Shown here piece after piece: positions 6,768 through 17,952 of a stretch of 64,000 bases of DNA. Every line of letters begins with the position of its first letter. Within the stretch, counting starts at the first letter, position 1. The translations under genes were made by a program, and so were the position numbers. Origin of the DNA: Hyphomicrobiales bacterium (GTDB taxonomy: Bacteria; Pseudomonadota; Alphaproteobacteria; MED-G09); NCBI GenBank assembly GCA_028339975.1, contig JAOLDG010000008.1:2154-66153 (forward strand). The letters are read 5' to 3'. The notes under the pieces were generated by a model, which was not told the origin of the DNA, did not search any database, and worked only from the letters and a program-made list of their open reading frames with translations.

Positions 6768-6844
6768 GGTCCCGTAGCTCAGCTGGATAGAGCAACGGAT
6801 TTCTAATCCGTAGGTCAGTAGTTCGAATCTACTCGGGATCACCA
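6768..6844 (+). tRNA. tRNA-Arg (anticodon TCT)
   Basis: The 77-nt cloverleaf can be read directly. The acceptor stem is GGTCCCG/CGGGATC, the D-arm is GCTC-AGCTGGATA-GAGC, the anticodon stem is ACGGA/TCCGT with loop TTTCTAA (anticodon TCT), and the T-arm is AGTAG-TTCGAAT-CTACT, with an encoded CCA. Confidence 0.85.
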
Positions 6845-6850
6845 TTTAAA
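6800..6850 (+). repeat. attL core: 3' 45 nt of tRNA-Arg plus TTTAAA, the 51-bp direct-repeat partner of 15114-15164
   Basis: The string TTTCTAATCCGTAGGTCAGTAGTTCGAATCTACTCGGGATCACCATTTAAA is identical at 6800-6850 and 15114-15164. Confidence 0.85.
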
Positions 6851-6898
6851 TTTCATTGTAATACAACAGTTATCCTTAGTAAATAGCCAAATAACCAT

Positions 6899-6928
6899 CT
6901 GTACGTACATTCATCTCTAACTGTACGT
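6899..6928 (+). promoter_or_regulatory. putative integrase arm-type binding sites (CTGTACGT x2, 22-bp spacing) at the attL arm
   Basis: CATCTGTACGT is at 6896-6906 and AACTGTACGTTT at 6919-6930. Their reverse complements (ACGTACAG x2) are at 14945-14972 at the other end of the element. Confidence 0.5.
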
Positions 6929-7045
6929 TTTTATACCTTGATATACATTTCAATACATTTATACTTATTATGTTGTATAAAACGTTGTACAAAAATAATA
7001 ATAAAGCTTATTTCGGACAGTTAATCCGAAATTTGAGCATACGAG

Positions 7046-9190
7046 GTGTTACTGGTGACGAAATATCTAAATGTTCCTAAGATTAAAGAAAAGGATTATT
7101 CTATTAAGTACAAAGATGAGCCAATTTTTGTAATAGAACAATTCAGCAAGCTATCATTACGAATAGGTAAATTTAAAATCGCCTATTATTACAGAGATAG
7201 AAAGCAATCAATTAAACTTGGTGAGCATCCTCATCTATCCTTATATGAGGCTCGTCAAAAAGCTCGTGAGATTGAAGGCGAAGTTTCAGTTCCAGAACAA
7301 TACAGGGATAAAAAAACCCTCTTAGAAGCAATTTATGGGAATCCAGAGCTTTACTGTCAAAACTCTTACCACTCAAATGAACATATAAGAGAGAGTGTAT
7401 TAGAAGGAAGCTATCTGGCTCAATATAAGGATAGGACAAATACATCCTCTTTTATTGATAAGAAAAACAAAATTCGCCTTCTTGCTGACCATTATGTTGA
7501 TATTAATAACAACTGCTCGATAACTATTGATAAGCTTGATGGCTTGGAAATAAAGAAAATTGCAGAGGATTATCATTTAATTGATGGTAAATCCGCATTA
7601 GCTTCAAAAAGATTATTTAATGAATGGAAAACTTTCTTCAAATGGTTATCAAAAAATGAAGGTATTTCAAATATTCTTGCTGACCAAGAAGTAAGCAAAG
7701 TTAAAGTTCGGGTTAAAAGGCGTGAATATAGAGATCCAAGATTTAAACCTGAGGAAGTAAACTCTTTAATTAATTCTTATGAACAAATGAATGAGCCTTA
7801 TAAATGGATACATCCGTTTATGATGTTTACAGGTAGAAGAATGGCATCTGTTTTACGATTAGAGAAAACTGATATTGATTTCGATAAGAATATTATCAAT
7901 TTTAGAGCTGATAATGAAAAAATGTCTATGAATAACTCAGACAGCATTCCACCTGCATATACTGAGATTCCTATGTGTAAATCCTTAGAATCTCTTGTTA
8001 AAGATAGAATACTTCCTTTTAAACCTGATAATAAGTTTCTATTCGCTCATCCAACTATTAAAGATATTCCCCTTAAGGTTAACGATAGGGAGATGCGAGA
8101 TAAAGTTAGAGAGGTAACAGGTATCAAAAACTTTACCTACAAAGATATAAGAACCAACGTTAATACAGCCATGATTAATCTGGGTATAGACCTTAGAATA
8201 AGGCAATTCATATTAGGACAGAAATCAGAGAAGGTTGAGAGTAGGGAGCTACAGCAACCCAGATCATTATCTGTAAATGAGATATTCTATGATAAAAACA
8301 CGCATCTTGAGGAAAAAAGAGAAGCACTTAACAAGATTGAAGGCCTTTGGATTAAATTTTCAGAACAAAATCATAAATTAGATGATAAAATTAGTGAAAT
8401 AACTGAGGATGATGAACTTTCTTTTATTCTTAAGAAAGACTCAGATTTAGAAATAATTAACGATTATCTGAAAAGTATAAAATCTAAGCCAATAACAAGT
8501 ATTAGCGAGTATTTAACTAAAAGAGATGGTCTACATCATGAAGCATCCGATTTCATGCATTGTGTTACACAATTCTTTTTGTACAAACAATACGTTGATT
8601 TTTTAAAGGCAAAAAAACATTTTACTAGCGGTGTTAAATTATACTTAAAAGCATTTATTTACAGACAGTTAAAAACTAATCCTAATTATCATGGTCGTGA
8701 TTATTTAAAGAACTGGAATAAATTGCAAAGCCTAGTTGCGGAATTACCCGCTTCTCATTGGAAAAATAAATACGATTATGAGAAATTAAAAATAGCTAGT
8801 CAAATTCACTATTATCAAGGTGAGTACAATAATTGGAAAATAAAGAAGGAAAAACCTGATTGGACAAAGATTAAAAATTACGATCCAAAAGAAGATGGAT
8901 CTAAAGGTGAGCTTAATGACATACTTTCAGGTAAAGATGGTTTAAATTCAGCGATAGAGCGGTTTAATAATACTTTTTTAAAAGACGGAAAAGATCCTTC
9001 TCCAGAAACATTAGGGCATAGTAAAAGAGTGTATTTGAAATATTATGAAAGTCTAAAAGCCCTAGATTCTATCGCTTTTGTGCAACTATATAACTACCAA
9101 CTTGTTGCTGATATACCAGATGAAAAATTTGAGAGAATGATATCTTCTTCGCAAAGAGATGCTGTTAAAGAAATGGCTAAAGAGTTATAA
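7046..9190 (+). CDS. int: tyrosine-type integrase/recombinase (P4-like N-terminal arm-binding domain) with a long C-terminal extension
   Basis: Starts at GTG. The N-terminal DUF4102-like arm-binding motif is GEHPHLSLYEARQKAREI. The catalytic region contains TGRRMASVLRLEKTDIDF (box I Arg), YKDIR (the HxxR box with His replaced by Lys), and LGQKSE...NEIFY (candidate Tyr). It lies directly next to the tRNA attL. Its 714 aa are about 300 aa longer than typical integrases. Confidence 0.75.
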   Translation: MLLVTKYLNVPKIKEKDYSIKYKDEPIFVIEQFSKLSLRIGKFKIAYYYRDRKQSIKLGEHPHLSLYEARQKAREIEGEVSVPEQYRDKKTLLEAIYGNPELYCQNSYHSNEHIRESVLEGSYLAQYKDRTNTSSFIDKKNKIRLLADHYVDINNNCSITIDKLDGLEIKKIAEDYHLIDGKSALASKRLFNEWKTFFKWLSKNEGISNILADQEVSKVKVRVKRREYRDPRFKPEEVNSLINSYEQMNEPYKWIHPFMMFTGRRMASVLRLEKTDIDFDKNIINFRADNEKMSMNNSDSIPPAYTEIPMCKSLESLVKDRILPFKPDNKFLFAHPTIKDIPLKVNDREMRDKVREVTGIKNFTYKDIRTNVNTAMINLGIDLRIRQFILGQKSEKVESRELQQPRSLSVNEIFYDKNTHLEEKREALNKIEGLWIKFSEQNHKLDDKISEITEDDELSFILKKDSDLEIINDYLKSIKSKPITSISEYLTKRDGLHHEASDFMHCVTQFFLYKQYVDFLKAKKHFTSGVKLYLKAFIYRQLKTNPNYHGRDYLKNWNKLQSLVAELPASHWKNKYDYEKLKIASQIHYYQGEYNNWKIKKEKPDWTKIKNYDPKEDGSKGELNDILSGKDGLNSAIERFNNTFLKDGKDPSPETLGHSKRVYLKYYESLKALDSIAFVQLYNYQLVADIPDEKFERMISSSQRDAVKEMAKEL

Positions 9191-9196
9191 CTTAAT

Positions 9197-9631
9197 ATGT
9201 CAGTTCCTTGTCCAAATCCAAAATGTGGAATACTTGAAGGCAGAAATTATGAAGGGGCTAACCCAATTCTCTTTTTTATTCCTTACATTGCTCCATGGCT
9301 CTGGTTTGATGCAATTATTCCTAGAGATAAAGATATTGCTCAAATTATTACCGAGTCAGACAGAGAGGATTGGGGTATCGACGATTGGGTTGAACTTGGT
9401 GTTTGCGATAGGTGTGGTTATAGACTTGGTGACCCACAACCATGGCAAAAGAATGTTAGAATTAAAAGATTTATTGTATGGATACTAATAATCCTTTTTT
9501 TCTCTTGGGCGACTATTTACTCACTGCTAGAGGATAGTGGTTATTTTTGGGTTAGTTTATTTTTCCTATTCTTTTCCTTAATCTATTTTCGTTCTAACGA
9601 AATTTACGAATTATCGGATGATGACGAATAG
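9197..9631 (+). CDS. hypothetical zinc-ribbon membrane protein
   Basis: Has CPNPKC...CDRC (a CxxC pair) followed by two predicted TM helices and an acidic tail. It begins 7 nt after the integrase stop. Confidence 0.4.
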   Translation: MSVPCPNPKCGILEGRNYEGANPILFFIPYIAPWLWFDAIIPRDKDIAQIITESDREDWGIDDWVELGVCDRCGYRLGDPQPWQKNVRIKRFIVWILIILFFSWATIYSLLEDSGYFWVSLFFLFFSLIYFRSNEIYELSDDDE

Positions 9632-9636
9632 GTTAT

Positions 9637-9790
9637 GTGTAGCCGAGACAAACACGCTCTTGGTCGATAAGGGGATGAAGAGGTACAGAAGATAACCTAG
9701 GAAAACCCTATCAGAGCAAAACTCGACTACACAACGCTATCTGGGAAACAGGGTGAAAAAGATAATCCCCATAACCCAGACGCAAGCTAT
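9637..9790 (+). ncRNA. candidate structured RNA or recombination/packaging element (GC-rich intergenic region)
   Basis: There is no ORF here, and the local GC is ~48% against a ~29% background. A long-range helix pairs GTGTAGCCGAG (9637-9647) with CTCGACTACAC (9722-9732), 10 of 11 bp, and encloses nested hairpins (CTCTT/AAGAG and GATAACCTAGG...CCCTATC). A second helix pairs CTGGG with CCCAG at 9741-9778. Confidence 0.3.
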
Positions 9791-9826
9791 TTGCCTTTTG
9801 AGGCTTTCTTTTTAGCTACATATAAC
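9785..9826 (+). terminator. possible intrinsic terminator downstream of the int-orf operon
   Basis: Hairpin AGCTA-TTT-GCCT-TTTG-AGGC followed by a TTTCTTTTT run and closed by TAGCT. The stem is short, so the call is weak. Confidence 0.3.
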
Positions 9827-9944
9827 TCAGCCTTTCCTAAATTTATTAGGAATTGACCTTCGTTATCTTCAACATCAAGAACTTCATTAGCGGAAACAAT
9901 ATTCCCACTAACTATGATTGTATTTAATATTCTAACTTTCATGA

Positions 9945-11711
9945 TTACGTCGTTACAATATCGTTGATTGCTGAGAAGCCTTGAATGTGTCGAATACCAA
10001 CATCTACAAATCCAAAGATAGTCACTATCACATCACCTCGTGTTGAGAATGTGTAAGGGTCGACTATAAGTTCTGGAGCACCAAACTCACCAATAATAAC
10101 ATTACTCCAATCACCAAAGATGAGAGCTGATAGATTAGCACCAGTTCCTTTCGTTAGAGTGTTTGGAACGTTCTGGGATTGTAAATATCTATATCCTAGA
10201 AGCTCGTCACGATTGTTAGAGATGTATGTCGCATCAGTACCAGCCGGATTTCTCAATGTTGTTCTAAGTTTATTAGCAACCTGAGAGTTCGTGACAAATG
10301 TACCTCGACCAGTTAACAGGCCGTTAGCTGTATCAACGTTGGCAATCATAGTAGAGATATTATCATAAGTGATAGCACCACCATTTGCACCAGATGAAAC
10401 AAGAGATAGACCAGTAGTATTTAGAATACCTGTTGGTTGAACTCCACCAGTTCCATTAATAACGGCTTTATCTATCGCTTCTGATACGCCCATCATTAAA
10501 TCATTCCTCATTAAGTTTTCTAGAGGAGGTAACATCTGGGTTAGAGCTTGTCTGGTATAAGACACTCTAGATGATATTCCATTAGGACTTAGTGTGAGCT
10601 GGTCAAAAGTAGGTGTTGATTCAGTCGCTGGACTTCCTTCAGCTACCCATTCACCAGCAGACGCTAATGTCTTTCTTGGAATTGCTACGTTCTGATTCAG
10701 TCCAGCCATAGTGGTTGCACCAGCATCAATAGAAACATTGAAAGGTCTTAAAACATCAATGAAGGATTGAGGCATATACTCTGTACCAACTAGATTTGAA
10801 GTATTAGTTGTATCGAGTAGAGTTCTTTGTCCAAAAGCTGATGGTGGAACAAATGCACCAGTCGTTGTTCTATTTTGGCGAGTTGCTATTTCTTGAGACA
10901 TTTCTCTCTCAAAACCAGCATTAGACCAATCTGAATTTAACTGAGCTGATATCACTTTGCCTATTGAGTATTCTCTTTTAGACATTGCTTGGTCTTGTTC
11001 AAAGCTAGTGTAAGCAGAAGCAATAGGCTCTGTCTTAACTCTATCTAGTAATTTTGAACGGAACTCATCAAGAGGCATATCTTTCATTGCACAATCTGTA
11101 GCAAATTCGATTTGTCTGTGATGCTTTCCTAGGGCTAGTATTTCTTTAGAAGCTCTTTCATTGGATGCTTCTTTTATTTTAGTTTCGATTTTATTTTCCA
11201 TAATGGATTCCTTTGGTTTTGGATATGATCTTTGAATACCAATACTGTGATCTGCCGGTACTCCAACAACTGACACCTCGTAAGGTTGCCATGATGTAAC
11301 GAGTTGATTGCGACCAACTTCTTTGACTTCATCGATTGAATATCCGATTGATAGAAAGCGTAAGACCTTTGACTTGATGTCATTCCAAACTTCGGTTGCT
11401 CTGGTACTTTGTCCAAGTCTCAGAGTTCCTCTTAGTTTTTTATCCTCAGATATTCTAACGTTCTCAACTGTCCCAATGGGATCTTGTTGATCATGTCCGA
11501 ATAGAAGGGGTAAGCCTATATCCGCTCTTTCCATGTTTATTGCTGATGGTTCATGAACCAGTATCTCGTTATATTCACCACGAGGAACTGGTAACTCAGA
11601 AGAAAGACTGGCTTCAATAGTCCGGTTTTCTCCAGCACGTTCATCTAACTCAATGAGCAGAGTCCTGTGGTTTAAGTCATCACGAGCATCAGACACATTT
11701 TCATGAGTCAT
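9945..11711 (-). CDS. fused prohead protease (S78/U35, HK97 gp4-like) and HK97-fold major capsid protein
   Basis: The N-terminal ~170 aa carry LPLLFGHDQQDPIG and SIGYSIDE, matching the prohead-protease His/Ser regions. A coiled-coil linker follows, then a C-terminal MCP-like region (...IFGDWSNVIIGEFGAPELIVDPYTFSTRGDVIV...). An AGGAAA SD lies 8 nt upstream of the ATG. GC is ~43-45%, well above the surrounding ~29%. Confidence 0.75.
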   Translation of the reverse strand: MTHENVSDARDDLNHRTLLIELDERAGENRTIEASLSSELPVPRGEYNEILVHEPSAINMERADIGLPLLFGHDQQDPIGTVENVRISEDKKLRGTLRLGQSTRATEVWNDIKSKVLRFLSIGYSIDEVKEVGRNQLVTSWQPYEVSVVGVPADHSIGIQRSYPKPKESIMENKIETKIKEASNERASKEILALGKHHRQIEFATDCAMKDMPLDEFRSKLLDRVKTEPIASAYTSFEQDQAMSKREYSIGKVISAQLNSDWSNAGFEREMSQEIATRQNRTTTGAFVPPSAFGQRTLLDTTNTSNLVGTEYMPQSFIDVLRPFNVSIDAGATTMAGLNQNVAIPRKTLASAGEWVAEGSPATESTPTFDQLTLSPNGISSRVSYTRQALTQMLPPLENLMRNDLMMGVSEAIDKAVINGTGGVQPTGILNTTGLSLVSSGANGGAITYDNISTMIANVDTANGLLTGRGTFVTNSQVANKLRTTLRNPAGTDATYISNNRDELLGYRYLQSQNVPNTLTKGTGANLSALIFGDWSNVIIGEFGAPELIVDPYTFSTRGDVIVTIFGFVDVGIRHIQGFSAINDIVTT

Positions 11712-11967
11712 ACTTCGTTTCCTAATATGTTAAGTGAATTCCTCGACCAGAGGATTTGCCTGAGTCTACCCTGACTCATCTTACTCTTATATAAAACTTA
11801 ATCTCTAGAACCGAGTAAGAGTTCTATTAAGTTGAAAAGGTTTTGCTCTTAACATTCCATGTATTGAATCTCCGCTACCAGCAGAAAACAAACAAACCTG
11901 ATAGATTTAATATGGGATGATTTGCATTCTTATTCAAGTGAAGTAATCTAATTTTAAACGAAATGGG

Positions 11968-12219
11968 ATGGAGATGATTATGGGTATATTTTTGGTTATT
12001 TTTTATATTGTAGTTGGCATAATGTTTTTTTCGGCTTGGGTGGGTTTGTTTATAATAAATAACTCCATACAAAGCCTACTTAGTTATGTAAGAATTCAAA
12101 ATGTCCTTTTGAAAAATATTGTTAATAAAGATAGAACACCATCTCAAGAGAATTATTTTTTAAATCAGCAAGCAGAAAACGATGATTCTTTTTATAAGGG
12201 CGTTACACCAATAGAGTGA
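11968..12219 (+). CDS. small hypothetical membrane protein (cargo)
   Basis: An 83-aa ORF with two hydrophobic helices and no homology that I recognise. Confidence 0.3.
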   Translation: MEMIMGIFLVIFYIVVGIMFFSAWVGLFIINNSIQSLLSYVRIQNVLLKNIVNKDRTPSQENYFLNQQAENDDSFYKGVTPIE

Positions 12220-12232
12220 TTAGGAAAAGGTA

Positions 12233-12655
12233 ATGAATAAAATACTTATAGCGTTAGTCATGGCAGTTGTGATGTGTGGAAATGTTTATGCTTGGACAGA
12301 GAGAGGTGAGCAGATTGATGAAGGGTTATATATTTCTCATTATTTCGATGAGCAGAATATTAGGCATCAGGGTAAATATCTCTGGTATTGGACTTTAATG
12401 AACATACATCGTGATGATAAACAAATTTATGGAAAAGGTGTAAAAAGTTGGCTTAATTATTGGAGAATAGATTGCAATCAGAGGACTAATGCAGTTTTTA
12501 AACTTGTTAAATATTCAAAGTTAGGTGGGCAAGGCAGAGTTCTTGAATCAGAAGATTATGAAGGCGGAGCTAATGCACAAGGCACTCCAAATACTTTTTC
12601 ATATATTATTCCAAATTCTCAAGGCGATTTCATAGCACAGTCTTATTGTAAGTAA
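12233..12655 (+). CDS. hypothetical secreted protein (cargo)
   Basis: Has an N-terminal signal peptide (MNKILIALVMAVVMCGNVYA) and is 140 aa. It sits inside the element, separated from the small membrane ORF by 13 nt. Confidence 0.4.
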   Translation: MNKILIALVMAVVMCGNVYAWTERGEQIDEGLYISHYFDEQNIRHQGKYLWYWTLMNIHRDDKQIYGKGVKSWLNYWRIDCNQRTNAVFKLVKYSKLGGQGRVLESEDYEGGANAQGTPNTFSYIIPNSQGDFIAQSYCK

Positions 12656-12901
12656 ATTAAAGGGTATATCGAAACTATCTTTAGATGACTTCATTTAAGG
12701 GTATTTCTCGTTGAGGCCTTCTGCTAGGCACAGAGAATCCTCAATGCGTTTCGTTTAATAGCATATTCAAACTAAAAAATACCGCTTGTATGGTCTTTAA
12801 ATAGGTTGACGAAGTGCTTCTAAGTGTCTGTTACTAGGAGACTATCGTGATATACAGTGCCCACAGTGTGCAAAGGCTCAGAAGAACCTCGAACATACCC
12901 C

Positions 12902-13375
12902 TTAGTTAAGTTTTAATGGGTCTAAAAAACCTTCAGGATTATCTTTTACATTTGTACGACTAGCAACAATAATATCGGCATAATGCTCTCTATCTTCTCT
13001 ATCTTGAAAGATAGTCTCTACTTTATGCCAATCCCTGTCACTTACCTTGCATTCATATGGATACAATATAGACCATCCCATATTCATAACCCAATCAGCT
13101 TCTTTCTTTGTACTTTTAAATATCTTATGATCTGCCTCTTTTGAATCTATTTTCCATCCAAAATAACAGGCTACACTTACTGCTTTTTTTTGCATACACC
13201 ACAAGTCATATAGATTAGCTATACTCATCTCTGTTGGCCCTGTTCCAATAACGCTATTGATGGATATTTTTACATCTAACATACTCATCTGTTTTTTTTC
13301 TGAGTCACTGAAACCTCTAAAGTGTTCGTTTTCCAAAGCTTTTGAAAGGTTAAAAAATACATATTGTGGATCCAT
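12902..13375 (-). CDS. hypothetical protein (element-borne)
   Basis: A 157-aa ORF with no recognised motif. It has the same orientation as the replication/excision module. Confidence 0.35.
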   Translation of the reverse strand: MDPQYVFFNLSKALENEHFRGFSDSEKKQMSMLDVKISINSVIGTGPTEMSIANLYDLWCMQKKAVSVACYFGWKIDSKEADHKIFKSTKKEADWVMNMGWSILYPYECKVSDRDWHKVETIFQDREDREHYADIIVASRTNVKDNPEGFLDPLKLN

Positions 13376-13464
13376 TTTAATCTCCTGTTGTTGTTTTTAA
13401 ATTCTGTAAATTAAGTAGACAGACACTACTATTGCTAACCAAATTAGAATGAGGATTAACTCAA

Positions 13465-14283
13465 TCAATTTGCTATGCTCTTAAAAAGGTTGGTTGTTGT
13501 TTGTAAGTCTCGGTTATTATCGTGCCAATGCTGACCAATCTCATCGATTTCAAAGTCACTAAGATGACCCTTCCAAATATCATATCGCATTATGACATCA
13601 CCAGAATTATGCTTTTCTAGTTCCTTCCAGAATTCATTGAACTTATTTTCAGTAAAGGTCTTAGTCTTAGGCTTATCTGGATTTTCACCCCCATCAAGGG
13701 GAGGGTGAAAAGACTGATTAACTTCAGCATTAGTGTCTAATATATCTCTAGTTTCTTTTTTTTTATTCTTTTCTTCTCTTTTCTTATGCTTAAGTCCAAC
13801 TAACTCACTTTCCTTGTTTTCTGGGAAATTATCATCATCGCTATGTATAGGTTTGTCAGAGACTTGCTCAGAGTTTGTGGTCGACTTGTTGTCCTTTAGT
13901 AACTCATTGTATTGATCTAGTCGCTCTTTCGCCATTTCTCGTTTGGCTGTTGCACCTTTCTTGCCTTTTTCAACATTAGTGAGATGCTTTGCCATAGTTT
14001 CATAATATAGTTTTTCTCCGAATTCAAAGTAATATCCTTTATTGGGAACTTTCCTAAAGAATGGCTTTATAACTTCACATACTGCTTGATATTGTCTTGG
14101 ATCTAACTTGGTTCTATATAGAAACCAACTTTTATCATCCAAATTAACGGCCTTATATTCTTGCATCCATTGTGCATCTAATATGTCTCTTAAAGCTCCT
14201 CGCTCTATACCCTTAAGATGTCCAGTCATGTAATGAAATTCTGCTACCGGAAACGGCATCGTATGAAGTGTAATAGTAGACAT
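13465..14283 (-). CDS. DUF1376 (YdaU-like) prophage replication-associated protein
   Basis: The N-terminal FHYMTGHLKGIERGALRDILDAQW fits the DUF1376 signature (HL...E.GAYRRLLD). It is followed by a low-complexity lysine/glutamate-rich region. Confidence 0.55.
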   Translation of the reverse strand: MSTITLHTMPFPVAEFHYMTGHLKGIERGALRDILDAQWMQEYKAVNLDDKSWFLYRTKLDPRQYQAVCEVIKPFFRKVPNKGYYFEFGEKLYYETMAKHLTNVEKGKKGATAKREMAKERLDQYNELLKDNKSTTNSEQVSDKPIHSDDDNFPENKESELVGLKHKKREEKNKKKETRDILDTNAEVNQSFHPPLDGGENPDKPKTKTFTENKFNEFWKELEKHNSGDVIMRYDIWKGHLSDFEIDEIGQHWHDNNRDLQTTTNLFKSIAN

Positions 14284-14675
14284 TAGTTCTTAACCTTCTC
14301 GGCAACTGTCTGGGCTTGCGAACAAAACCTCATGCCTTTGTAGAGAAATGGTAAAAGATTGATCACAGGTCTACCCAAGTCGAACTGCTCTAATAAATCT
14401 TCCCTTTCATGGAAATAATGAAGTCTCCATCCATTACTTGATAACTCAAGAGCCATATAAGAGCTTATGCCTTTCTGGTAGTTCTCATGAATCATATCTA
14501 GGTTATCTAAATTAGCTATAACTTGAGCTGATAGATTGCTTGCATCTTGGACTTGCATACCAAAGCTCTCAAAGGTCGGAACTAGCTCACTCATCCAGAA
14601 ATTAACAATATTGATAGTTTCCTGAGGAAGATCATTAAAATCATCTGATTTAAGCATTAGACTTAATCCATGCAT
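14283..14675 (-). CDS. hypothetical protein, translationally coupled to the DUF1376 gene
   Basis: The track ORF extends to 14783, but that N-terminus overlaps the AlpA gene in another frame. An internal Met at 14675 or 14657 is the more likely start. The stop overlaps the start of the DUF1376 gene. Confidence 0.3.
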   Translation of the reverse strand: MHGLSLMLKSDDFNDLPQETINIVNFWMSELVPTFESFGMQVQDASNLSAQVIANLDNLDMIHENYQKGISSYMALELSSNGWRLHYFHEREDLLEQFDLGRPVINLLPFLYKGMRFCSQAQTVAEKVKN

Positions 14676-14880
14676 TAACTTCGCTTTCACGATACATAGC
14701 TTTGCACTTGTTATTAGGTCTCTTACTTTTTGGAAACAAACCTTCGCTTTCCCATCTCTGGATAGTTGCTGATGATTTACCAACTAAAGTCGCTACCTCA
14801 GTTCTTGATAGTAGGCGATTTTTAGTCTGACTAAGTTTTTCTAGTATTTTGTAAATTTCTGTTTCTAATTGTTTGTCCAT
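14650..14880 (-). CDS. AlpA-family phage transcriptional regulator / excisionase (HTH)
   Basis: A 76-aa protein with LLSRTEVATLVGKSSATIQRWESEGLFPKS...YRESEVNAWI, matching the AlpA/Xis-type HTH. It is the first gene inward from attR. Confidence 0.65.
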   Translation of the reverse strand: MDKQLETEIYKILEKLSQTKNRLLSRTEVATLVGKSSATIQRWESEGLFPKSKRPNNKCKAMYRESEVNAWIKSNA

Positions 14881-14944
14881 GAAGACCTCCTTTAAATGTA
14901 TAAGAAGTCTAACTCCATGATAGTGACGTTTAACATCAAATTTG

Positions 14945-14972
14945 ACGTACAGATGAAGCTAAAAACGTACAG
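14945..14972 (+). promoter_or_regulatory. putative integrase arm-type sites at the attR arm (ACGTACAG x2)
   Basis: ACGTACAG occurs at 14945-14952 and 14965-14972, the reverse complement of the CTGTACGT pair at 6899-6928. The extended matches are CATCTGTACGT and AACTGTACGTTT. Confidence 0.5.
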
Positions 14973-15113
14973 TTTAACTTTGATATTGAAGTTACTTTGA
15001 GCGTAATGTATTACTTTAAACTACAAGTTATAGGGATTAGGTGTTGTACAGAACGATGTACAAAAATCGAGAAAGATAAGCAATTACTTACGTTTGACTA
15101 TGGTGTTTTATGG

Positions 15114-15164
15114 TTTCTAATCCGTAGGTCAGTAGTTCGAATCTACTCGGGATCACCATTTAAA
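15114..15164 (+). repeat. attR core: 51-bp direct repeat of the tRNA-Arg 3' end
   Basis: Identical to 6800-6850. The identity breaks immediately outside on both sides. Confidence 0.85.
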
Positions 15165-15243
15165 AATAGCCATAAACCAATATCCACCTTAACTTCTTTT
15201 CAAAAACTATAATGAAGTGATATTTATGTTGTTTTGACTAATT

Positions 15244-15900
15244 TTAAAGTAGGGACCAACCATAGAAAATGGATATAAAAATTGTATAAATAGCCAGAAG
15301 AATAACGTTGACAGGGTTTCCAGATAGTTTTGGTGTTTTTATTTGAGAAACATTTAATATTGCAAGACATATTCCGCTGGCACCAAGAAAAAATGAAAAA
15401 AATGTATCTTCAAAGCGCTCTGCAAACATAAATAAAAAAACTAGAATAATACTATTGTTATCAATGGCTAGGCCAGTGTATTTTGCATCGCTTGATAATC
15501 CAAAGGTGCTAAAATAACTTAATCTAATAGCACCAAAAACTAGCATTATGAATGCAGGAATTAAAAAGAGCGGATTAAAATTCGAATAACTTAATATCAA
15601 AATAGCGGGGGTGACTCCATAACTTACAATATCTATTAGTAGATCAAGTTGGCCTCCAAATTTTTGATCGTCACCTGTTCTTCCCTTTATTTTACGAGCA
15701 ATAAGGCCATCAGCCCAATCAAAGGCAACTGCCCAAATCATTCCTATCATTGCGGCTTCATATATACCTATTATCAGGAAGTATATTGCAAGTAGTGAGC
15801 AGCCTAAGCCTGCAAGAGAGCATATATTGGGAATATCTCCAATGTAAGACAGGATAGATTTTGTTGGAAACTTTGTTGATATTGATCTTTTAGTTGTCAT
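15244..15900 (-). CDS. CDP-alcohol phosphatidyltransferase family protein
   Basis: Has the D(x2)DG(x2)AR...G(x3)D(x3)D signature (DWADGLIARKIKGRTGDDQKFGGQLDLLIDIVSYG) and is a multi-pass membrane protein. Confidence 0.75.
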   Translation of the reverse strand: MTTKRSISTKFPTKSILSYIGDIPNICSLAGLGCSLLAIYFLIIGIYEAAMIGMIWAVAFDWADGLIARKIKGRTGDDQKFGGQLDLLIDIVSYGVTPAILILSYSNFNPLFLIPAFIMLVFGAIRLSYFSTFGLSSDAKYTGLAIDNNSIILVFLFMFAERFEDTFFSFFLGASGICLAILNVSQIKTPKLSGNPVNVILLAIYTIFISIFYGWSLL

Positions 15901-15993
15901 AGCAAGTAATTTAACCTAATATGTAAAAGCATAATTTTATGTTAGATTTCTAACACTTTGCTATCATCATTTATGAGGTAGTAAAAGGAAAAA

Positions 15994-16500
15994 TTGAAAA
16001 TAGTTGTATACACTGTCGGTACCTTTGATTTACTTCATGTTGGTCATCTTGCTTTATTGAACCATTGCAAAACACTTGGAGACATCCTCGCGGTTGGGGT
16101 TGCTTCAGATGAAGTTGTTAATATGTACAAACCTAATGTTCCTATTGTTCCCTTAGAACAACGTATGGAGATGTTGCGAGCGCTTGGGTGCGTCGATATA
16201 GTTCGCCCATATCATGAACTTGAGTATATTTCAGGTTGCAAAGCCTTAAATGTTGATATTTTTGTTGTAGGTGAGGATTGGGGAAAGAAATCACATAACC
16301 TTGATGTTGATAACTATATTAGAGATATTGGTAAGAAAATTGAACAGGTTCACTATAATCCAAGAACTTCATCAACTAAAATAAAACAAATGGTTTTATC
16401 TCAGAATCAACTTCAAACCAAAATAAATGAGCAGAAATTACAAAGGTTTTCTGTATATAAAAAGAGTCCGAGCTATCCTTTTGCAAAACAAACTAAATAA
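15994..16500 (+). CDS. cytidylyltransferase (TagD-like glycerol-3-phosphate / phospho-alcohol cytidylyltransferase)
   Basis: Has the HxGH motif GTFDLLHVGH, plus FVVGEDWGKK and NPRTSSTKIK, matching the TagD-family pattern (FVMGDDWEGKF ... PRTEGISTTKIK). Confidence 0.7.
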   Translation: MKIVVYTVGTFDLLHVGHLALLNHCKTLGDILAVGVASDEVVNMYKPNVPIVPLEQRMEMLRALGCVDIVRPYHELEYISGCKALNVDIFVVGEDWGKKSHNLDVDNYIRDIGKKIEQVHYNPRTSSTKIKQMVLSQNQLQTKINEQKLQRFSVYKKSPSYPFAKQTK

Positions 16501-16583
16501 TTTATATTCAATGTTATGATATATCCGCACAAGAGTTTCCCTCAAGCATGTAACTAGAAATTGCTTACGCTATAAAAATTAAA

Positions 16584-16627
16584 TCAGTAGATTAGAAGTT
16601 CAAATCTTCTCGGGATCACCATTTAAA
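16584..16627 (+). repeat. degenerate relic copy of the tRNA-Arg 3' end (old att site)
   Basis: TCAGTAG...AGAAGTTCAAATCTTCTCGGGATCACCATTTAAA aligns to the tRNA T-arm and acceptor (AGTAGTTCGAATCTACTCGGGATCACCATTTAAA). There are 3 substitutions, two of them compensatory in the T-stem (AGAAG/CTTCT). The tRNA 5' half is absent. Confidence 0.55.
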
Positions 16628-16738
16628 AAATAGACAATTATATCCTAAAAATTATAAAAATTAATGCTTGTATGTTTTTAATAACCATTATTAACTAGTT
16701 TTTTTTATAACAAAAACTTAAAAAAATAGGAATTAATT

Positions 16739-17479
16739 ATGAGTTGTATCAAAGGAAAAGTAATTTTAATTACAGGTGCTAGTTCAGGATTTGGCATGGT
16801 AACTGCCAAAAAATGTGTTGAACACGGCGCAAAAGTTGTTCTGGCTGCAAGACGTGAAAATAGACTAAAGGATTTATGCGAATCTTTGGGTAGTGATAAT
16901 GCAATTTTTATGGCCACAGACGTAACCAGGAAAGAAGATTTAAATAATATAGTAAAATACGGAATTGATACCTTTAATCAAATTGACTCCTTGGTTAATA
17001 ATGCAGGAATTATGCCCTTGTCTTTTATTGAGCAAGGTAGAACTGATGAATGGGATCAGATGATTGATGTTAATATAAAAGGTGTTTTATATGCCATTGA
17101 TGCGGTTTATTCCCACATGATGGAAAGAGGTAGTGGTCAAATTATCAATATTTCGTCAGTGGCGGGTAAAAGACTTATTCCTGGAAGTGCAGTTTACTCT
17201 GGAACAAAATTTGCTGTAGCGGCTATCTCAGAAGGCCTAAGAATAGAAAGTGAGGGAAAGCTGCAGGTAACTTGTATTTTTCCAGGTGCTTTTGAAACCG
17301 AACTTGGAGCGTCAATTAAAGATGAAAAAATGCTAGAATATCTTACCAGTGAGGCTAAGTACGCTAATCTTGCCCAGCCTGCCGAGATAGTTGCAGATGC
17401 AATAATTTATTCCCTAGAACAAAAACCTGGTGTTGCTGCAAATGAGATAGTTTTAAGACCAACAGCCCAAGATTTTTAA
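16739..17479 (+). CDS. SDR family short-chain dehydrogenase/reductase
   Basis: Carries the TGASSGFG Rossmann motif, NNAG, and a YSGTK catalytic Tyr-x3-Lys. Confidence 0.8.
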   Translation: MSCIKGKVILITGASSGFGMVTAKKCVEHGAKVVLAARRENRLKDLCESLGSDNAIFMATDVTRKEDLNNIVKYGIDTFNQIDSLVNNAGIMPLSFIEQGRTDEWDQMIDVNIKGVLYAIDAVYSHMMERGSGQIINISSVAGKRLIPGSAVYSGTKFAVAAISEGLRIESEGKLQVTCIFPGAFETELGASIKDEKMLEYLTSEAKYANLAQPAEIVADAIIYSLEQKPGVAANEIVLRPTAQDF

Positions 17480-17505: not shown

Positions 17506-17952
17506 ATGACTAAATTAAATATAGTATATGCATCAGAAATGGGAACAGCAATGGATGTAGCTGATAAGACTGAAGCAATAGCTAAAGATAAAGGTGTTGA
17601 TGTTGTTCAGTTTGGGATGGATAGCGTATCAATGGATGAATTAAAAACCATGAGTAAATTAATGATTATAACAAGCACAACAGGTGATGGCGACCTTCCA
17701 ATGATGGGTGAAAATTTTTGGAATGAATTATCGGAATCTGACTTAGACTTAAGCTCTATTGAATATAGCGTCTGCGCCCTCGGGGATAGCTCTCATCATG
17801 AATTTTGTGGTGCTGGCAAAAAAGTTGATGGAAGATTACTAGAGCTTGGTGCAAAAAAAATTCTAGATATGCATGAATGCGATGGTGATACTGAAGGATC
17901 TGAAGAATGGGCGACGCTAGCAATGGATAAGCTAGGGGTTCTGCCTAATTAA
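17506..17952 (+). CDS. flavodoxin-domain protein
   Basis: IVYASEMGTA...TSTTGDGDLP is an FMN-binding flavodoxin-like signature in a 148-aa protein. Confidence 0.6.
   Translation: MTKLNIVYASEMGTAMDVADKTEAIAKDKGVDVVQFGMDSVSMDELKTMSKLMIITSTTGDGDLPMMGENFWNELSESDLDLSSIEYSVCALGDSSHHEFCGAGKKVDGRLLELGAKKILDMHECDGDTEGSEEWATLAMDKLGVLPN

Follow-up and report, generated by a model that had tools for sequence, protein, structure and literature searches.

What is the 1.46-kb segment at positions 15165–16627, which lies between the far end of an integrative element and a conserved SDR gene, and how did it come to be there? The window, that is, the whole stretch of 64,000 nt analysed here, belongs to a marine alphaproteobacterium of the PS1 clade. 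In it, an element of 8.3 kb (island 1) occupies the 3' end of a tRNA-Arg(TCT) gene, and the segment in question (hereafter the islet) follows the distal end (attR) of island 1 and is closed by a further, degenerate copy of the tRNA 3' end (relic B). The original prediction, made from the letters of the window, regarded the islet as a second, decayed element at the same tRNA hotspot. Comparison with genomes and metagenome contigs (L numbers below) indicated that the islet is very probably an older layer of a tRNA-seeded additive island that grew by tandem accretion. The checks that the prediction had proposed all came out in its favour, with some qualifications given below.

The single tRNA gene detected by ARAGORN in the window is the intact tRNA-Arg(TCT) at 6768–6844 on the forward strand, which forms the proximal anchor, or seed, of the array and whose T stem, aligned with the tRNAs of relatives, reads AGTAG/CTACT. 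A repeat search identified a family of three 51-nt copies, all on the forward strand: copy 1 (6800–6850), which starts at the anticodon loop, takes in the CCA end and the TTTAAA after it, and represents the attL core of island 1; copy 2 (15114–15164, 100% identical), which serves as attR for island 1 and bounds the islet on the left; and copy 3 (16577–16627), which is relic B, a degenerate tRNA-Arg 3' half that matches the tRNA at 41 of 51 positions (80%), with clear similarity over 16581–16621. The start-to-start distances are 8314 and 1463 nt, in agreement with the predicted third tRNA end about 1.46 kb past attR. In the T arm and acceptor strand, relic B reads AGAAG-TTCAAAT-CTTCT-CGGGATCACCA and the tRNA AGTAG-TTCGAAT-CTACT-CGGGATCACCA. 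The alignment thus reproduced the three differences that had been noticed before, two of which are located on opposite sides of one T-stem pair and preserve its pairing, and relic B keeps the T stem AGAAG/CTTCT, the T loop TTCAAAT, an intact acceptor strand and CCA. The similarity also runs further 5' than had been listed, to approximately position 16581. It takes in the variable loop as well as the 3' strand of the anticodon stem (with TCCGT replaced by TCAGT and AGGTC by AGATT) and ends inside the anticodon loop. There, relic B has AATTAAA where the tRNA has TTTCTAA, so that the anticodon-loop part of the core is gone; outside this part, relic B has four further substitutions.

The similarity is well above background. 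A 25-mer search allowing up to three mismatches found only the three repeat sites in the window and no match in any of 100 dinucleotide shuffles. Relic B scores 41/51 without gaps; apart from the repeat copies, no place in the window scored above 28/51 on either strand, and none of 200 shuffles exceeded 32/51. Chance similarity, which the original prediction had proposed to check against shuffled sequence, was ruled out by these shuffles and by the window background. Only 3' halves of the tRNA are repeated, and no 5'-half copy was found anywhere in the DNA examined. A search of Rfam with 14900–16800 gave zero matches, which is expected for half-tRNAs.

Relatives showed what the site looked like without insertions. 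The SDR gene (16739–17479, forward strand; assigned by Pfam), which is the distal anchor of the array, is located directly downstream of the tRNA in related loci, and its closest homologues (86–90% amino acid identity) occur in single-amplified genomes (SAGs) and metagenome-assembled genomes (MAGs) labelled PS1 clade, OCS116 or 'Rhodobiaceae'. In L004–L007, an intact tRNA-Arg(TCT), the single tRNA there, lies 82–176 bp upstream of SDR, and synteny is kept on both sides (RPE65, nitroreductase, DUF4440 and a 215-aa open reading frame (ORF) upstream; PEMT, BipA and DUF3429 downstream). A sister lineage (L094, SDR with 92% amino acid identity) also has an uninterrupted site, in which the tRNA is followed by 83 bp and then by SDR-flavodoxin-PEMT. 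None of the genes of island 1 or of the islet is present at the tRNA–SDR locus in L004–L007 or L094, and the segment is therefore not a part of conserved core synteny, in which the tRNA abuts SDR. In addition, the DNA between relic B and SDR (16622–16738, forward strand) could be aligned with the ancestral tRNA-to-SDR spacer of L004–L007, including a conserved block, AAATTAATnCTTGTATGTTTTTAATAACCATTATTAACTA (in the window AAATTAATGCTTGTATGTTTTTAATAACCATTATTAACTA at approximately 16660–16700). Relic B is therefore found at the ancestral position of the tRNA 3' end.

The T-stem alleles provided further evidence of the origin of relic B. The tRNAs of L004–L007 have AGAGG/CCTCT. The AGAAG/CTTCT stem of relic B was found in intact tRNA-Arg(TCT) genes of L085, L094 and L095, which were detected by scanning metagenomes with AGWAGTTCRAATCTWCTCGGGATCACCA, and also in L109. 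Because intact tRNA genes carry it, AGAAG/CTTCT is a working allele and not a lucky pair of decay mutations, and relic B descends from a once-functional, distinct tRNA end, as had been proposed. Random GC-to-AT decay of the T-stem pair had been considered (a rough combinatorial estimate, by reasoning only, gave ~0.08–0.2 for two of six changes falling on one G-C pair), and the finding of the intact AGAAG/CTTCT tRNAs settled this point. Relic B matches the intact AGAAG-allele tRNA at 36 of 41 positions, and four of the five differences are GC-to-AT changes outside stems or unpaired, a pattern that suggests neutral decay in a genome with 32% GC. To find the donor of the relic, a comparison with tRNA-Arg genes of other marine bacteria and phages had been proposed: the AGAAG stem does occur in tRNA-Arg(TCT) of marine bacteria, and viral contigs scanned with AGWAGTTCRAATCTWCTCGGGATCACCA gave 0 matches, on which ground a phage donor was rejected. 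The relic B sequence is identical in L001 and L091. A local duplication of the copy at 15114–15164 as its source is contradicted by the different allele and by the presence of relic B in contigs that lack island 1.

Such contigs were part of a set of conspecific metagenome sequences, 98.6–98.8% identical to the window over 6.8–9 kb of flank, that contain different stacks between the same tRNA and SDR. In the following, "copy" refers to an exact tRNA 3'-half copy and "relic" to a degenerate one. L089 and L091 have the tRNA with the AGTAG stem, an 85-nt flank followed by a SnoaL_4 ORF and a 44-nt right arm (armI), relic A (TTTCTAATC-GTAGGTTAGAAGTTCGAATCTTCTCGGGATTACCA), the islet, relic B and SDR. 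In L108, a 618-kb contig, the order is tRNA (AGTAG), SnoaL cassette, copy, an ORF of 265 aa (ORF265), relic, islet, relic and SDR, and in L109 it is tRNA (AGAAG), an ORF for a 2OG-Fe(II) oxygenase, copy (AGTAG), ORF265, relic, islet, relic and SDR. L095 has tRNA (AGAAG), the 2OG ORF, copy (AGTAG) and a SnoaL-type flank, and L112, which lacks the islet, contains copy, ORF265, relic and the native flank. None of L089, L091 and L108 has island 1. Three to four tRNA-half copies are present per array in L089, L091, L108 and L109, and each unit boundary, at every junction, coincides with a tRNA 3'-half copy. Most copies begin at the anticodon loop (TTTCTAA), and the relics linked to armX, the right-end stub of the islet described below, begin ~4–5 nt further 3', at AATC. 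Thus, the tandem-island array that had been proposed is seen in conspecific stacks bounded by tRNA halves, a layout already described for other marine and environmental bacteria, and cassette content between tRNA-fragment copies does vary among related strains, with states lacking island 1 and one lacking the islet.

Some units in these arrays are very small. The 2OG unit (reverse complement of L095, 332–1000; L109, 237–878) has ~715 bp, nearly all of which is one 213-aa ORF whose stop codon abuts the next tRNA-half copy, and its carriers have AGAAG in the working tRNA. The SnoaL cassette corresponds to an extra segment of 752 bp in L089 and L091, which was considered as an integrase remnant and gave nothing in tBLASTn before it proved to be this cassette. 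The 85-nt flank is duplicated around it, after the tRNA and again after the next copy (L089, 9354–10110; L108, 9056–9812), and the last 32 nt of this flank belong to the block of the islet that encodes the CDP-OH transferase, which suggests capture of the flank by aberrant excision or homologous recombination. The allele of the working tRNA goes with the unit to its right: where this is the 2OG cassette the tRNA has AGAAG, and where it is the SnoaL cassette or island 1 it has AGTAG. The copy in front of the islet retains GGGATTACCA whether the left arm before it is armI, as in L089, or armX, as in L108.

Within the islet, three parts could be distinguished, and it is a mosaic in which a fragment of transplanted chromosomal DNA lies between the stub of an element arm and the stub of a cassette end. 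The left-arm stub (F2; 15159–15211, forward strand; TTTAAAAATAGCCATAAACCAATATCCACCTTAACTT...), which was recognized by flank comparison and from the ORFs of L098, contributes 47 nt to the islet, and ~36 of its first 42 nt match the L098 sequence between the tRNA and the gene for a 692-aa integrase. It is followed by a two-gene block of 1.3 kb (15212–16512), delimited by BLASTN and by reading of the breakpoints, which has 86–91% nucleotide identity to blocks that are not associated with tRNAs. The right-arm stub (armX; 16513–16576, forward strand, 64 nt) is homologous to the last ~50 nt of ORF265 of the other cassette and its trailing spacer; positions 1093–1143 of L088 match 16508–16558 of the window at 98%. 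In both L108 and L109, armX occurs twice, after ORF265 and again after the cytidylyltransferase gene of the islet. We also noticed that armI (AATTACTTACGTT) and armX (AATTGCTTACGCT) agree at 11 of 13 positions at different spacing, a similarity on which we do not rely.

Homologs of the two-gene block were detected in several other neighbourhoods, apparently of other marine Alphaproteobacteria. At 86–91% nucleotide identity, it occurs in an MFS-GST-pair-DCC1 neighbourhood (L099–L102, L114 and L115) and in a pair-rhodanese-AMP-ligase neighbourhood (L103 and L104), and at 72–74% it is located among transposases (L105–L107). No tRNA or tRNA fragment was found near the block in L099–L107, L114 or L115. 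Both breakpoints in the window are sharp, the left one at approximately 15211/15212, between ...CAAAAACTATA and ATGAAGTG..., and the right one at approximately 16512/16513, between ...TTATATTCAAT and GTTATGATATATCC.... A second, 'home' copy of the module beside DCC1 was looked for in the conspecific genome: a search for homologs of DCC1 gave no match from its 618-kb contig (L108). The source names of the DCC1 and cytidylyltransferase homologs were 'Alphaproteobacteria', 'Hyphomicrobiales' and 'Puniceispirillales'.

The block encodes an intact member of the CDP-alcohol phosphatidyltransferase family (15244–15900, reverse strand, 218 aa; Pfam PF01066, E=1.1e-10) and an intact, divergent cytidylyltransferase-like protein (15994–16500, forward strand, 168 aa; Pfam PF01467, E=1.2e-18; 4431 homologs). 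NCBIfam gave only sub-threshold matches for the islet proteins (PssA-like and RfaE-domain-II/TagD-like), and an exact-sequence look-up of both returned no record. Judged by their families, the two proteins may act as a Kennedy-type pair that, in two steps, activates a phospho-alcohol head group and transfers it. When compared with the homologous blocks in other neighbourhoods, dN/dS was 0.12–0.14 for the first gene and 0.11–0.13 for the second, so that both are kept by purifying selection. The description of the islet as decayed therefore holds for its mobility parts and not for its two genes, and its structure is that of a mosaic rather than of an element simply stripped of its integrase. As had been noticed, there are two cargo genes and no integrase: Pfam recognized only the CDP-OH transferase and the cytidylyltransferase, the non-coding remainder consists of 86, 93 and 76 nt, which leaves no room for an integrase remnant, and tBLASTn with the integrase of the window found nothing in the islet.

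Island 1 (6845–15113), the newest layer of the stack, is a satellite-like integrative element according to its Pfam content. It encodes a tyrosine integrase of 714 aa, a prohead protease-HK97 capsid fusion of 588 aa, an AdhesinE-like lipoprotein and an AlpA/HTH_17 excisionase-like protein, together with a DUF1376 match below the Pfam cut-off; terminase, portal and tail genes were not seen in it, and no primase or helicase was recognized by Pfam. With this gene content it seems to resemble the capsid-bearing tycheposons that are akin to phage-inducible chromosomal islands (PICI-like). Its right arm is armI (15070–15113, forward strand, 44 nt; alignment and BLAST), which also serves as the right arm of the 752-bp SnoaL cassette. 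The integrase gene (Phage_integrase domain) adjoins the tRNA, and homologs occupy the same position in L087 and L098. Integrases of this hotspot are large, ~690–720 aa (window, 7046–9190; L087, 334–2346; reverse complement of L098, 243–2321; L084, 2793–4952); their Phage_integrase domain ends near residue 400 and is followed by a C-terminal extension of ~300 aa that has no Pfam match and is alignable between homologs that are only 25–63% identical. Further elements at the same tRNA (L084, L086–L088 and L096–L098) have integrases 63%, 42% and 25% identical to that of island 1, and some of them have different right arms.

The arms of island 1 (6845–7045 and 14881–15113; 434 nt) contain 11 of the 50 TGTAC/GTACA motifs of the window as well as a 26-nt direct repeat (6971–6996 and 15042–15067, 88% identical), and these motifs and the repeat are candidate arm-type integrase sites. 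No TGTAC/GTACA motif is present in the flanks of the islet. Because of this, and because relic B lacks the anticodon-loop segment, the islet is probably fixed. A second type of integrase, 25% identical to that of island 1, was observed on the opposite strand against the 5' end of the tRNA (L084, 2793–5165; L091, 8267–11998), and the one in L091 adjoins, in inverted orientation, DNA with 97.8% identity to positions 9631–10618 of island 1. A 5'-half tRNA repeat that would explain this upstream integrase in L084 and L091 was not found in the DNA examined.

Several observations were made on the flanks and on more distant relatives. A flavodoxin gene (17506–17952) between SDR and PEMT is absent in L004–L007 and present in L094 and in conspecific contigs, and thus represents a separate small indel in the "core" flank. 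The gap between the 215-aa ORF and the tRNA, 0.13 kb in the window, contains 2.6–4.5 kb of extra DNA in relatives (L004, 5327–9839; L005, 7208–9833; L006, 7112–9747), and the upstream side of the tRNA is therefore variable too. A more distant lineage (L092, 5220–5330; L090, 800–935) lacks the SDR gene; its tRNA precedes a cassette that contains a Cys-rich ORF of 51 aa, and after this cassette, just ahead of the conserved SDR-promoter block, lies what may be a badly decayed tRNA end (TTCAATTGAATCCATCTAGGTGCCATT). SAGs and MAGs labelled SAR86 (Gammaproteobacteria; L012–L016, L020, L023, L025 and L027) have SDR homologs 67–72% identical to that of the window, as near as those of some PS1 genomes, which could reflect horizontal transfer or a labelling issue; no tRNA adjoins SDR in L012, L016 and L027, the three that were scanned.

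The repeats, the ancestral site and the haplotypes can be combined in a scenario, in which integrases would have made the junctions. At the start, the tRNA-Arg(TCT) gene would have been located directly upstream of SDR. Elements with large tyrosine integrases would have recombined with the 3' half of the tRNA, which starts at approximately the anticodon loop or stem and ends with CCA. Each newcomer would have supplied its own 3' half, which became a part of the working tRNA, and pushed the prior insert and the displaced 3' half distally. A crossover near the anticodon loop fits the observation that the allele tracks the right-hand neighbour and that GGGATTACCA is constant behind two arms, and with such a crossover the most distal relic would be the chromosomal end that was present at the first insertion. 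Relic B would be this oldest displaced end, which had the AGAAG/CTTCT allele and then decayed mostly by GC-to-AT changes, and the exact copy at 15114–15164 would be the end displaced by the latest arrival, island 1. Older units would have lost their mobility genes while non-element DNA became embedded, and the 1.3-kb piece of the islet would be ordinary chromosomal DNA of another marine alphaproteobacterium, with two functional lipid/head-group genes.

Some of our data weigh against this simple order of events. The copy ahead of F2 in the window is an exact AGTAG copy, and other arrays have at this place an AGAAG-type copy ending in GGGATTACCA (...ATTACCA). Simple sequential integration is thus insufficient, and a further event, a deletion or conversion whose crossover lies in ...CCATTTAAAAATAG..., would have to be assumed. 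The ~24 nt after relic B (TTTAAAAAATAGACA..ATATCC) resemble an element-type arm (TTTAAAAATAGCCA..ATATCC), and because of this resemblance relic B could be the stub of a still older element and not the native end. All armX-linked relics share T48 and mostly A57, and these residues could have travelled with armX (attP-derived) rather than be chromosomal. The haplotypes are short-read metagenome contigs, many of which end at repeats, L108 has an N gap inside the islet, and some of the array joins could be chimeric; the key junctions recur in independent samples (L110/L111; L088/L113/L108; L089/L091). Finally, the islet is bracketed by ~115-nt repeats (armX and relic) in L108 and L109, and the SnoaL cassette by ~130-nt repeats (tRNA half and 85-nt flank). 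These extended repeats, which are longer than an att core, suggest that homologous recombination or flank capture occurred atop site-specific events.

It is possible, although we consider it rather improbable, that the islet entered or leaves the same array by homologous (RecA-type) recombination or unequal crossing-over and not by the action of an integrase. The ~115-nt armX-relic unit would be the substrate: a circle or fragment consisting of relic, F2, module and armX would recombine with a resident armX-relic and thereby duplicate this unit, and the reverse event would delete the islet and lead to the state seen in L112. The unit is indeed found on both sides of the module in L108 and L109 and once, with no module, in L112, the T48/A57 residues are common to the armX-linked relics, and arm-type motifs are lacking in the islet flanks. 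The SnoaL duplication is analogous, and the last 32 nt of its flank come from the module block, so the flank was copied locally. However, the repeats are short for efficient RecA recombination, and the units still start and end at tRNA-half copies that must first have been made by site-specific integration. Moreover, in most arrays the allele goes with the right-hand neighbour (AGAAG with 2OG; AGTAG with F1 and F'), which fits an integrase crossover at the anticodon loop.

The second alternative, which appears doubtful, concerns the origin of relic B, for which the original prediction had named two candidates, the displaced chromosomal end and the attP-borne copy of a different element. In the latter case, relic B would be a tRNA-like copy carried by the element that delivered the islet or by an older one, and the crossover would lie close to the repeat's 3' end, the T arm moving together with the right arm of the element. 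Consistent with this, all armX-linked copies share AG(G/A)TT-AGAAG-TT(C/A)AAAT whatever lies to their right, armI is linked to an AGTAG copy in five of six contexts, and the flank after relic B has the arm-like character mentioned above. By contrast, the working-tRNA allele changes with the adjacent right cassette (AGAAG with 2OG, otherwise AGTAG), the F2-linked copy keeps ..GGGATTACCA behind both armI (L089) and armX (L108), the similarity of all copies starts at the anticodon loop, and the uninterrupted site of L094 has AGAAG as its native allele. Position and allele linkage thus favour the displaced chromosomal end, from which the attP-borne copy is not fully separable.

It is unlikely that the units without an integrase (islet, SnoaL, 2OG and ORF265) are still mobile, as cis-mobilizable units which, like cis-mobilizable elements (CIMEs) or integron cassettes, would be moved in trans by ~700-aa integrases of co-resident elements such as island 1, with the tRNA-half copies as att sites. 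The units do occur in different contexts (SnoaL before ORF265 or the islet; ORF265 before the islet or the native flank; 2OG before SnoaL or ORF265), some internal copies match the tRNA exactly over 51 nt, the 44-nt right arm is common to the SnoaL cassette and island 1, and the 2OG cassette of L095 and L109 is, with ~715 bp, almost a pure ORF plus a tRNA half. However, their order is always 2OG, SnoaL, ORF265 and islet and is never permuted, which accretion and deletion would explain equally well. Furthermore, relic B lacks the part of the core that lies in the anticodon loop (AATTAAA for TTTCTAA) and has four more substitutions, the flanks of the islet are devoid of the GTAC arm motifs of island 1, and neither circular forms nor copies in the viral fraction were found (0 matches in the scan of viral contigs). 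For an extended version, in which the tRNA-Arg(TCT) locus would be an integron-like platform where one- or two-gene cassettes of 0.7–1.5 kb, which have no recombinase and only a tRNA 3'-half copy as recombination site, are captured, excised and shuffled in trans by satellite-borne ~700-aa integrases, our expectation is similarly low, as it is for the corollary that the T-arm allele in the working tRNA would be exchanged at every capture. Lastly, that relic B is a chance similarity, or is left over from a tandem duplication of the tRNA gene in which mobile DNA had no part, has a negligible probability, as only the AT-richness of the region speaks for it, whereas the score of 41/51 (background maximum 28, shuffle maximum 32) and the 25-mer search (0/100 shuffles) do not fit chance, only 3' halves that start within or just after the anticodon loop are repeated, and relatives have a single tRNA and lack the intervening DNA.

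With tandem accretion as the preferred reading, the locus offers a clean, datable record of how a flexible region is built in a streamlined marine bacterium, in which each insertion leaves a displaced tRNA end. The allele series AGAGG/CCTCT (sister species), AGAAG/CTTCT and AGTAG/CTACT suggests that the 3' half of the working tRNA was repeatedly replaced by element-borne copies. Stacked, swappable cassettes at a tRNA site are a well-known route of genome variation in marine bacteria, and our data would extend the model of tRNA-seeded islands from Prochlorococcus to the PS1 clade, for which the literature searched contained no description of such islands. They also suggest that such islands may come to hold, as a fixed part, ordinary chromosomal DNA of other bacteria, here a two-gene lipid/head-group module. 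Because haplotypes that have or lack each layer occur naturally within the species, the locus is a practical system for testing the mobility of cassettes that lack an integrase.

The closest known system is that of Prochlorococcus, where tycheposons build tRNA-seeded additive islands and tRNA-Arg(TCT) is among the seed tRNAs (Hackl et al., bioRxiv 10.1101/2020.12.28.424599). Between neighbouring elements of these islands there is nothing but a partial tRNA copy, older material is displaced distally by newcomers, and there are scattered degenerate remnants, extra partial tRNAs and much non-element DNA, which is thought to have been brought as flanking DNA; PICI-like capsid-bearing elements and cargo elements use the same site, and similar elements were reported in Alphaproteobacteria (10.1101/2020.12.28.424599). 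The present locus shares with them a streamlined marine host, an island abutting a tRNA, partial tRNAs as separators, the distal push and embedded non-element DNA. It differs in its PS1-clade alphaproteobacterial host, in very small units with one or two genes in 0.7–1.5 kb, and in the preservation of successive T-stem alleles in the array. With respect to the tycheposon hallmark genes (primase/helicase, xis and regulators), an AlpA/HTH_17 gene and the sub-cut-off DUF1376 match were recognized in island 1, and the islet has none; the likeness concerns layout and genes. The integrases here are ~700-aa proteins with an unannotated C-terminal extension, and a Pfam match to Phage_integrase does not by itself assign them to the tycheposon recombinase lineage.

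Another related layout occurs in Dehalococcoides, where several ssrA islands stand in tandem downstream of one small-RNA gene, with direct repeats of the gene's 3' end as the boundaries of each. Units without an integration module occur among them and were discussed as cis-mobilizable or fixed, and the number of units varies by strain (McMurdie et al. 2011, PMC3146451). Both systems have tandem units, boundaries made of 3'-end repeats, units without an integrase and a strain-variable number of units. In Dehalococcoides, however, the target is a tmRNA, the repeat has 20 bp, the recombinase is a serine recombinase and the cargo includes reductive dehalogenases, whereas here a tRNA repeat of 45–51 nt is associated with tyrosine recombinases.

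The islet also resembles CIMEs in that it has no recombination or transfer genes and lies in tandem with an integrase-bearing element at one site. In Streptococcus thermophilus, accretion of CIMEs and integrative and conjugative elements, reportedly described by Pavlovic and co-workers in 2004, is said to place att-bounded units that lack an integrase in tandem with an element that has one, with both deletion and accretion. By definition, CIMEs keep functional attL and attR. The left copy of the islet is exact, but relic B matches at 41/51, has no anticodon-loop segment and is flanked by DNA without GTAC motifs, and unlike in S. thermophilus there is no conjugation machinery at the present locus. 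Similarly, integron arrays share with our locus one- or two-gene units that lack a recombinase and end in a repeated sequence resembling a recombination site, with strain-variable content. However, no IntI-type gene was found, attI/attC sites and a Pc promoter logic are lacking, the repeat is a tRNA 3' half and not attC, and the order was never permuted in the data seen, so that the locus is not an integron.

The position of the repeat agrees with what is known of integration into tRNA genes, for which sublocation classes were reportedly defined by Williams in Nucleic Acids Res in 2002: as in these classes, the identity block extends from the anticodon loop to the 3' end and the 3' half supplied by the element keeps the tRNA intact. 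All features of tandem accreted islands at a tRNA hotspot are present here, including repeats at unit boundaries, broken synteny, an integrase in the active unit and presence/absence among strains. The locus is therefore an unusually well-resolved new example of a known process and not a new kind of system.

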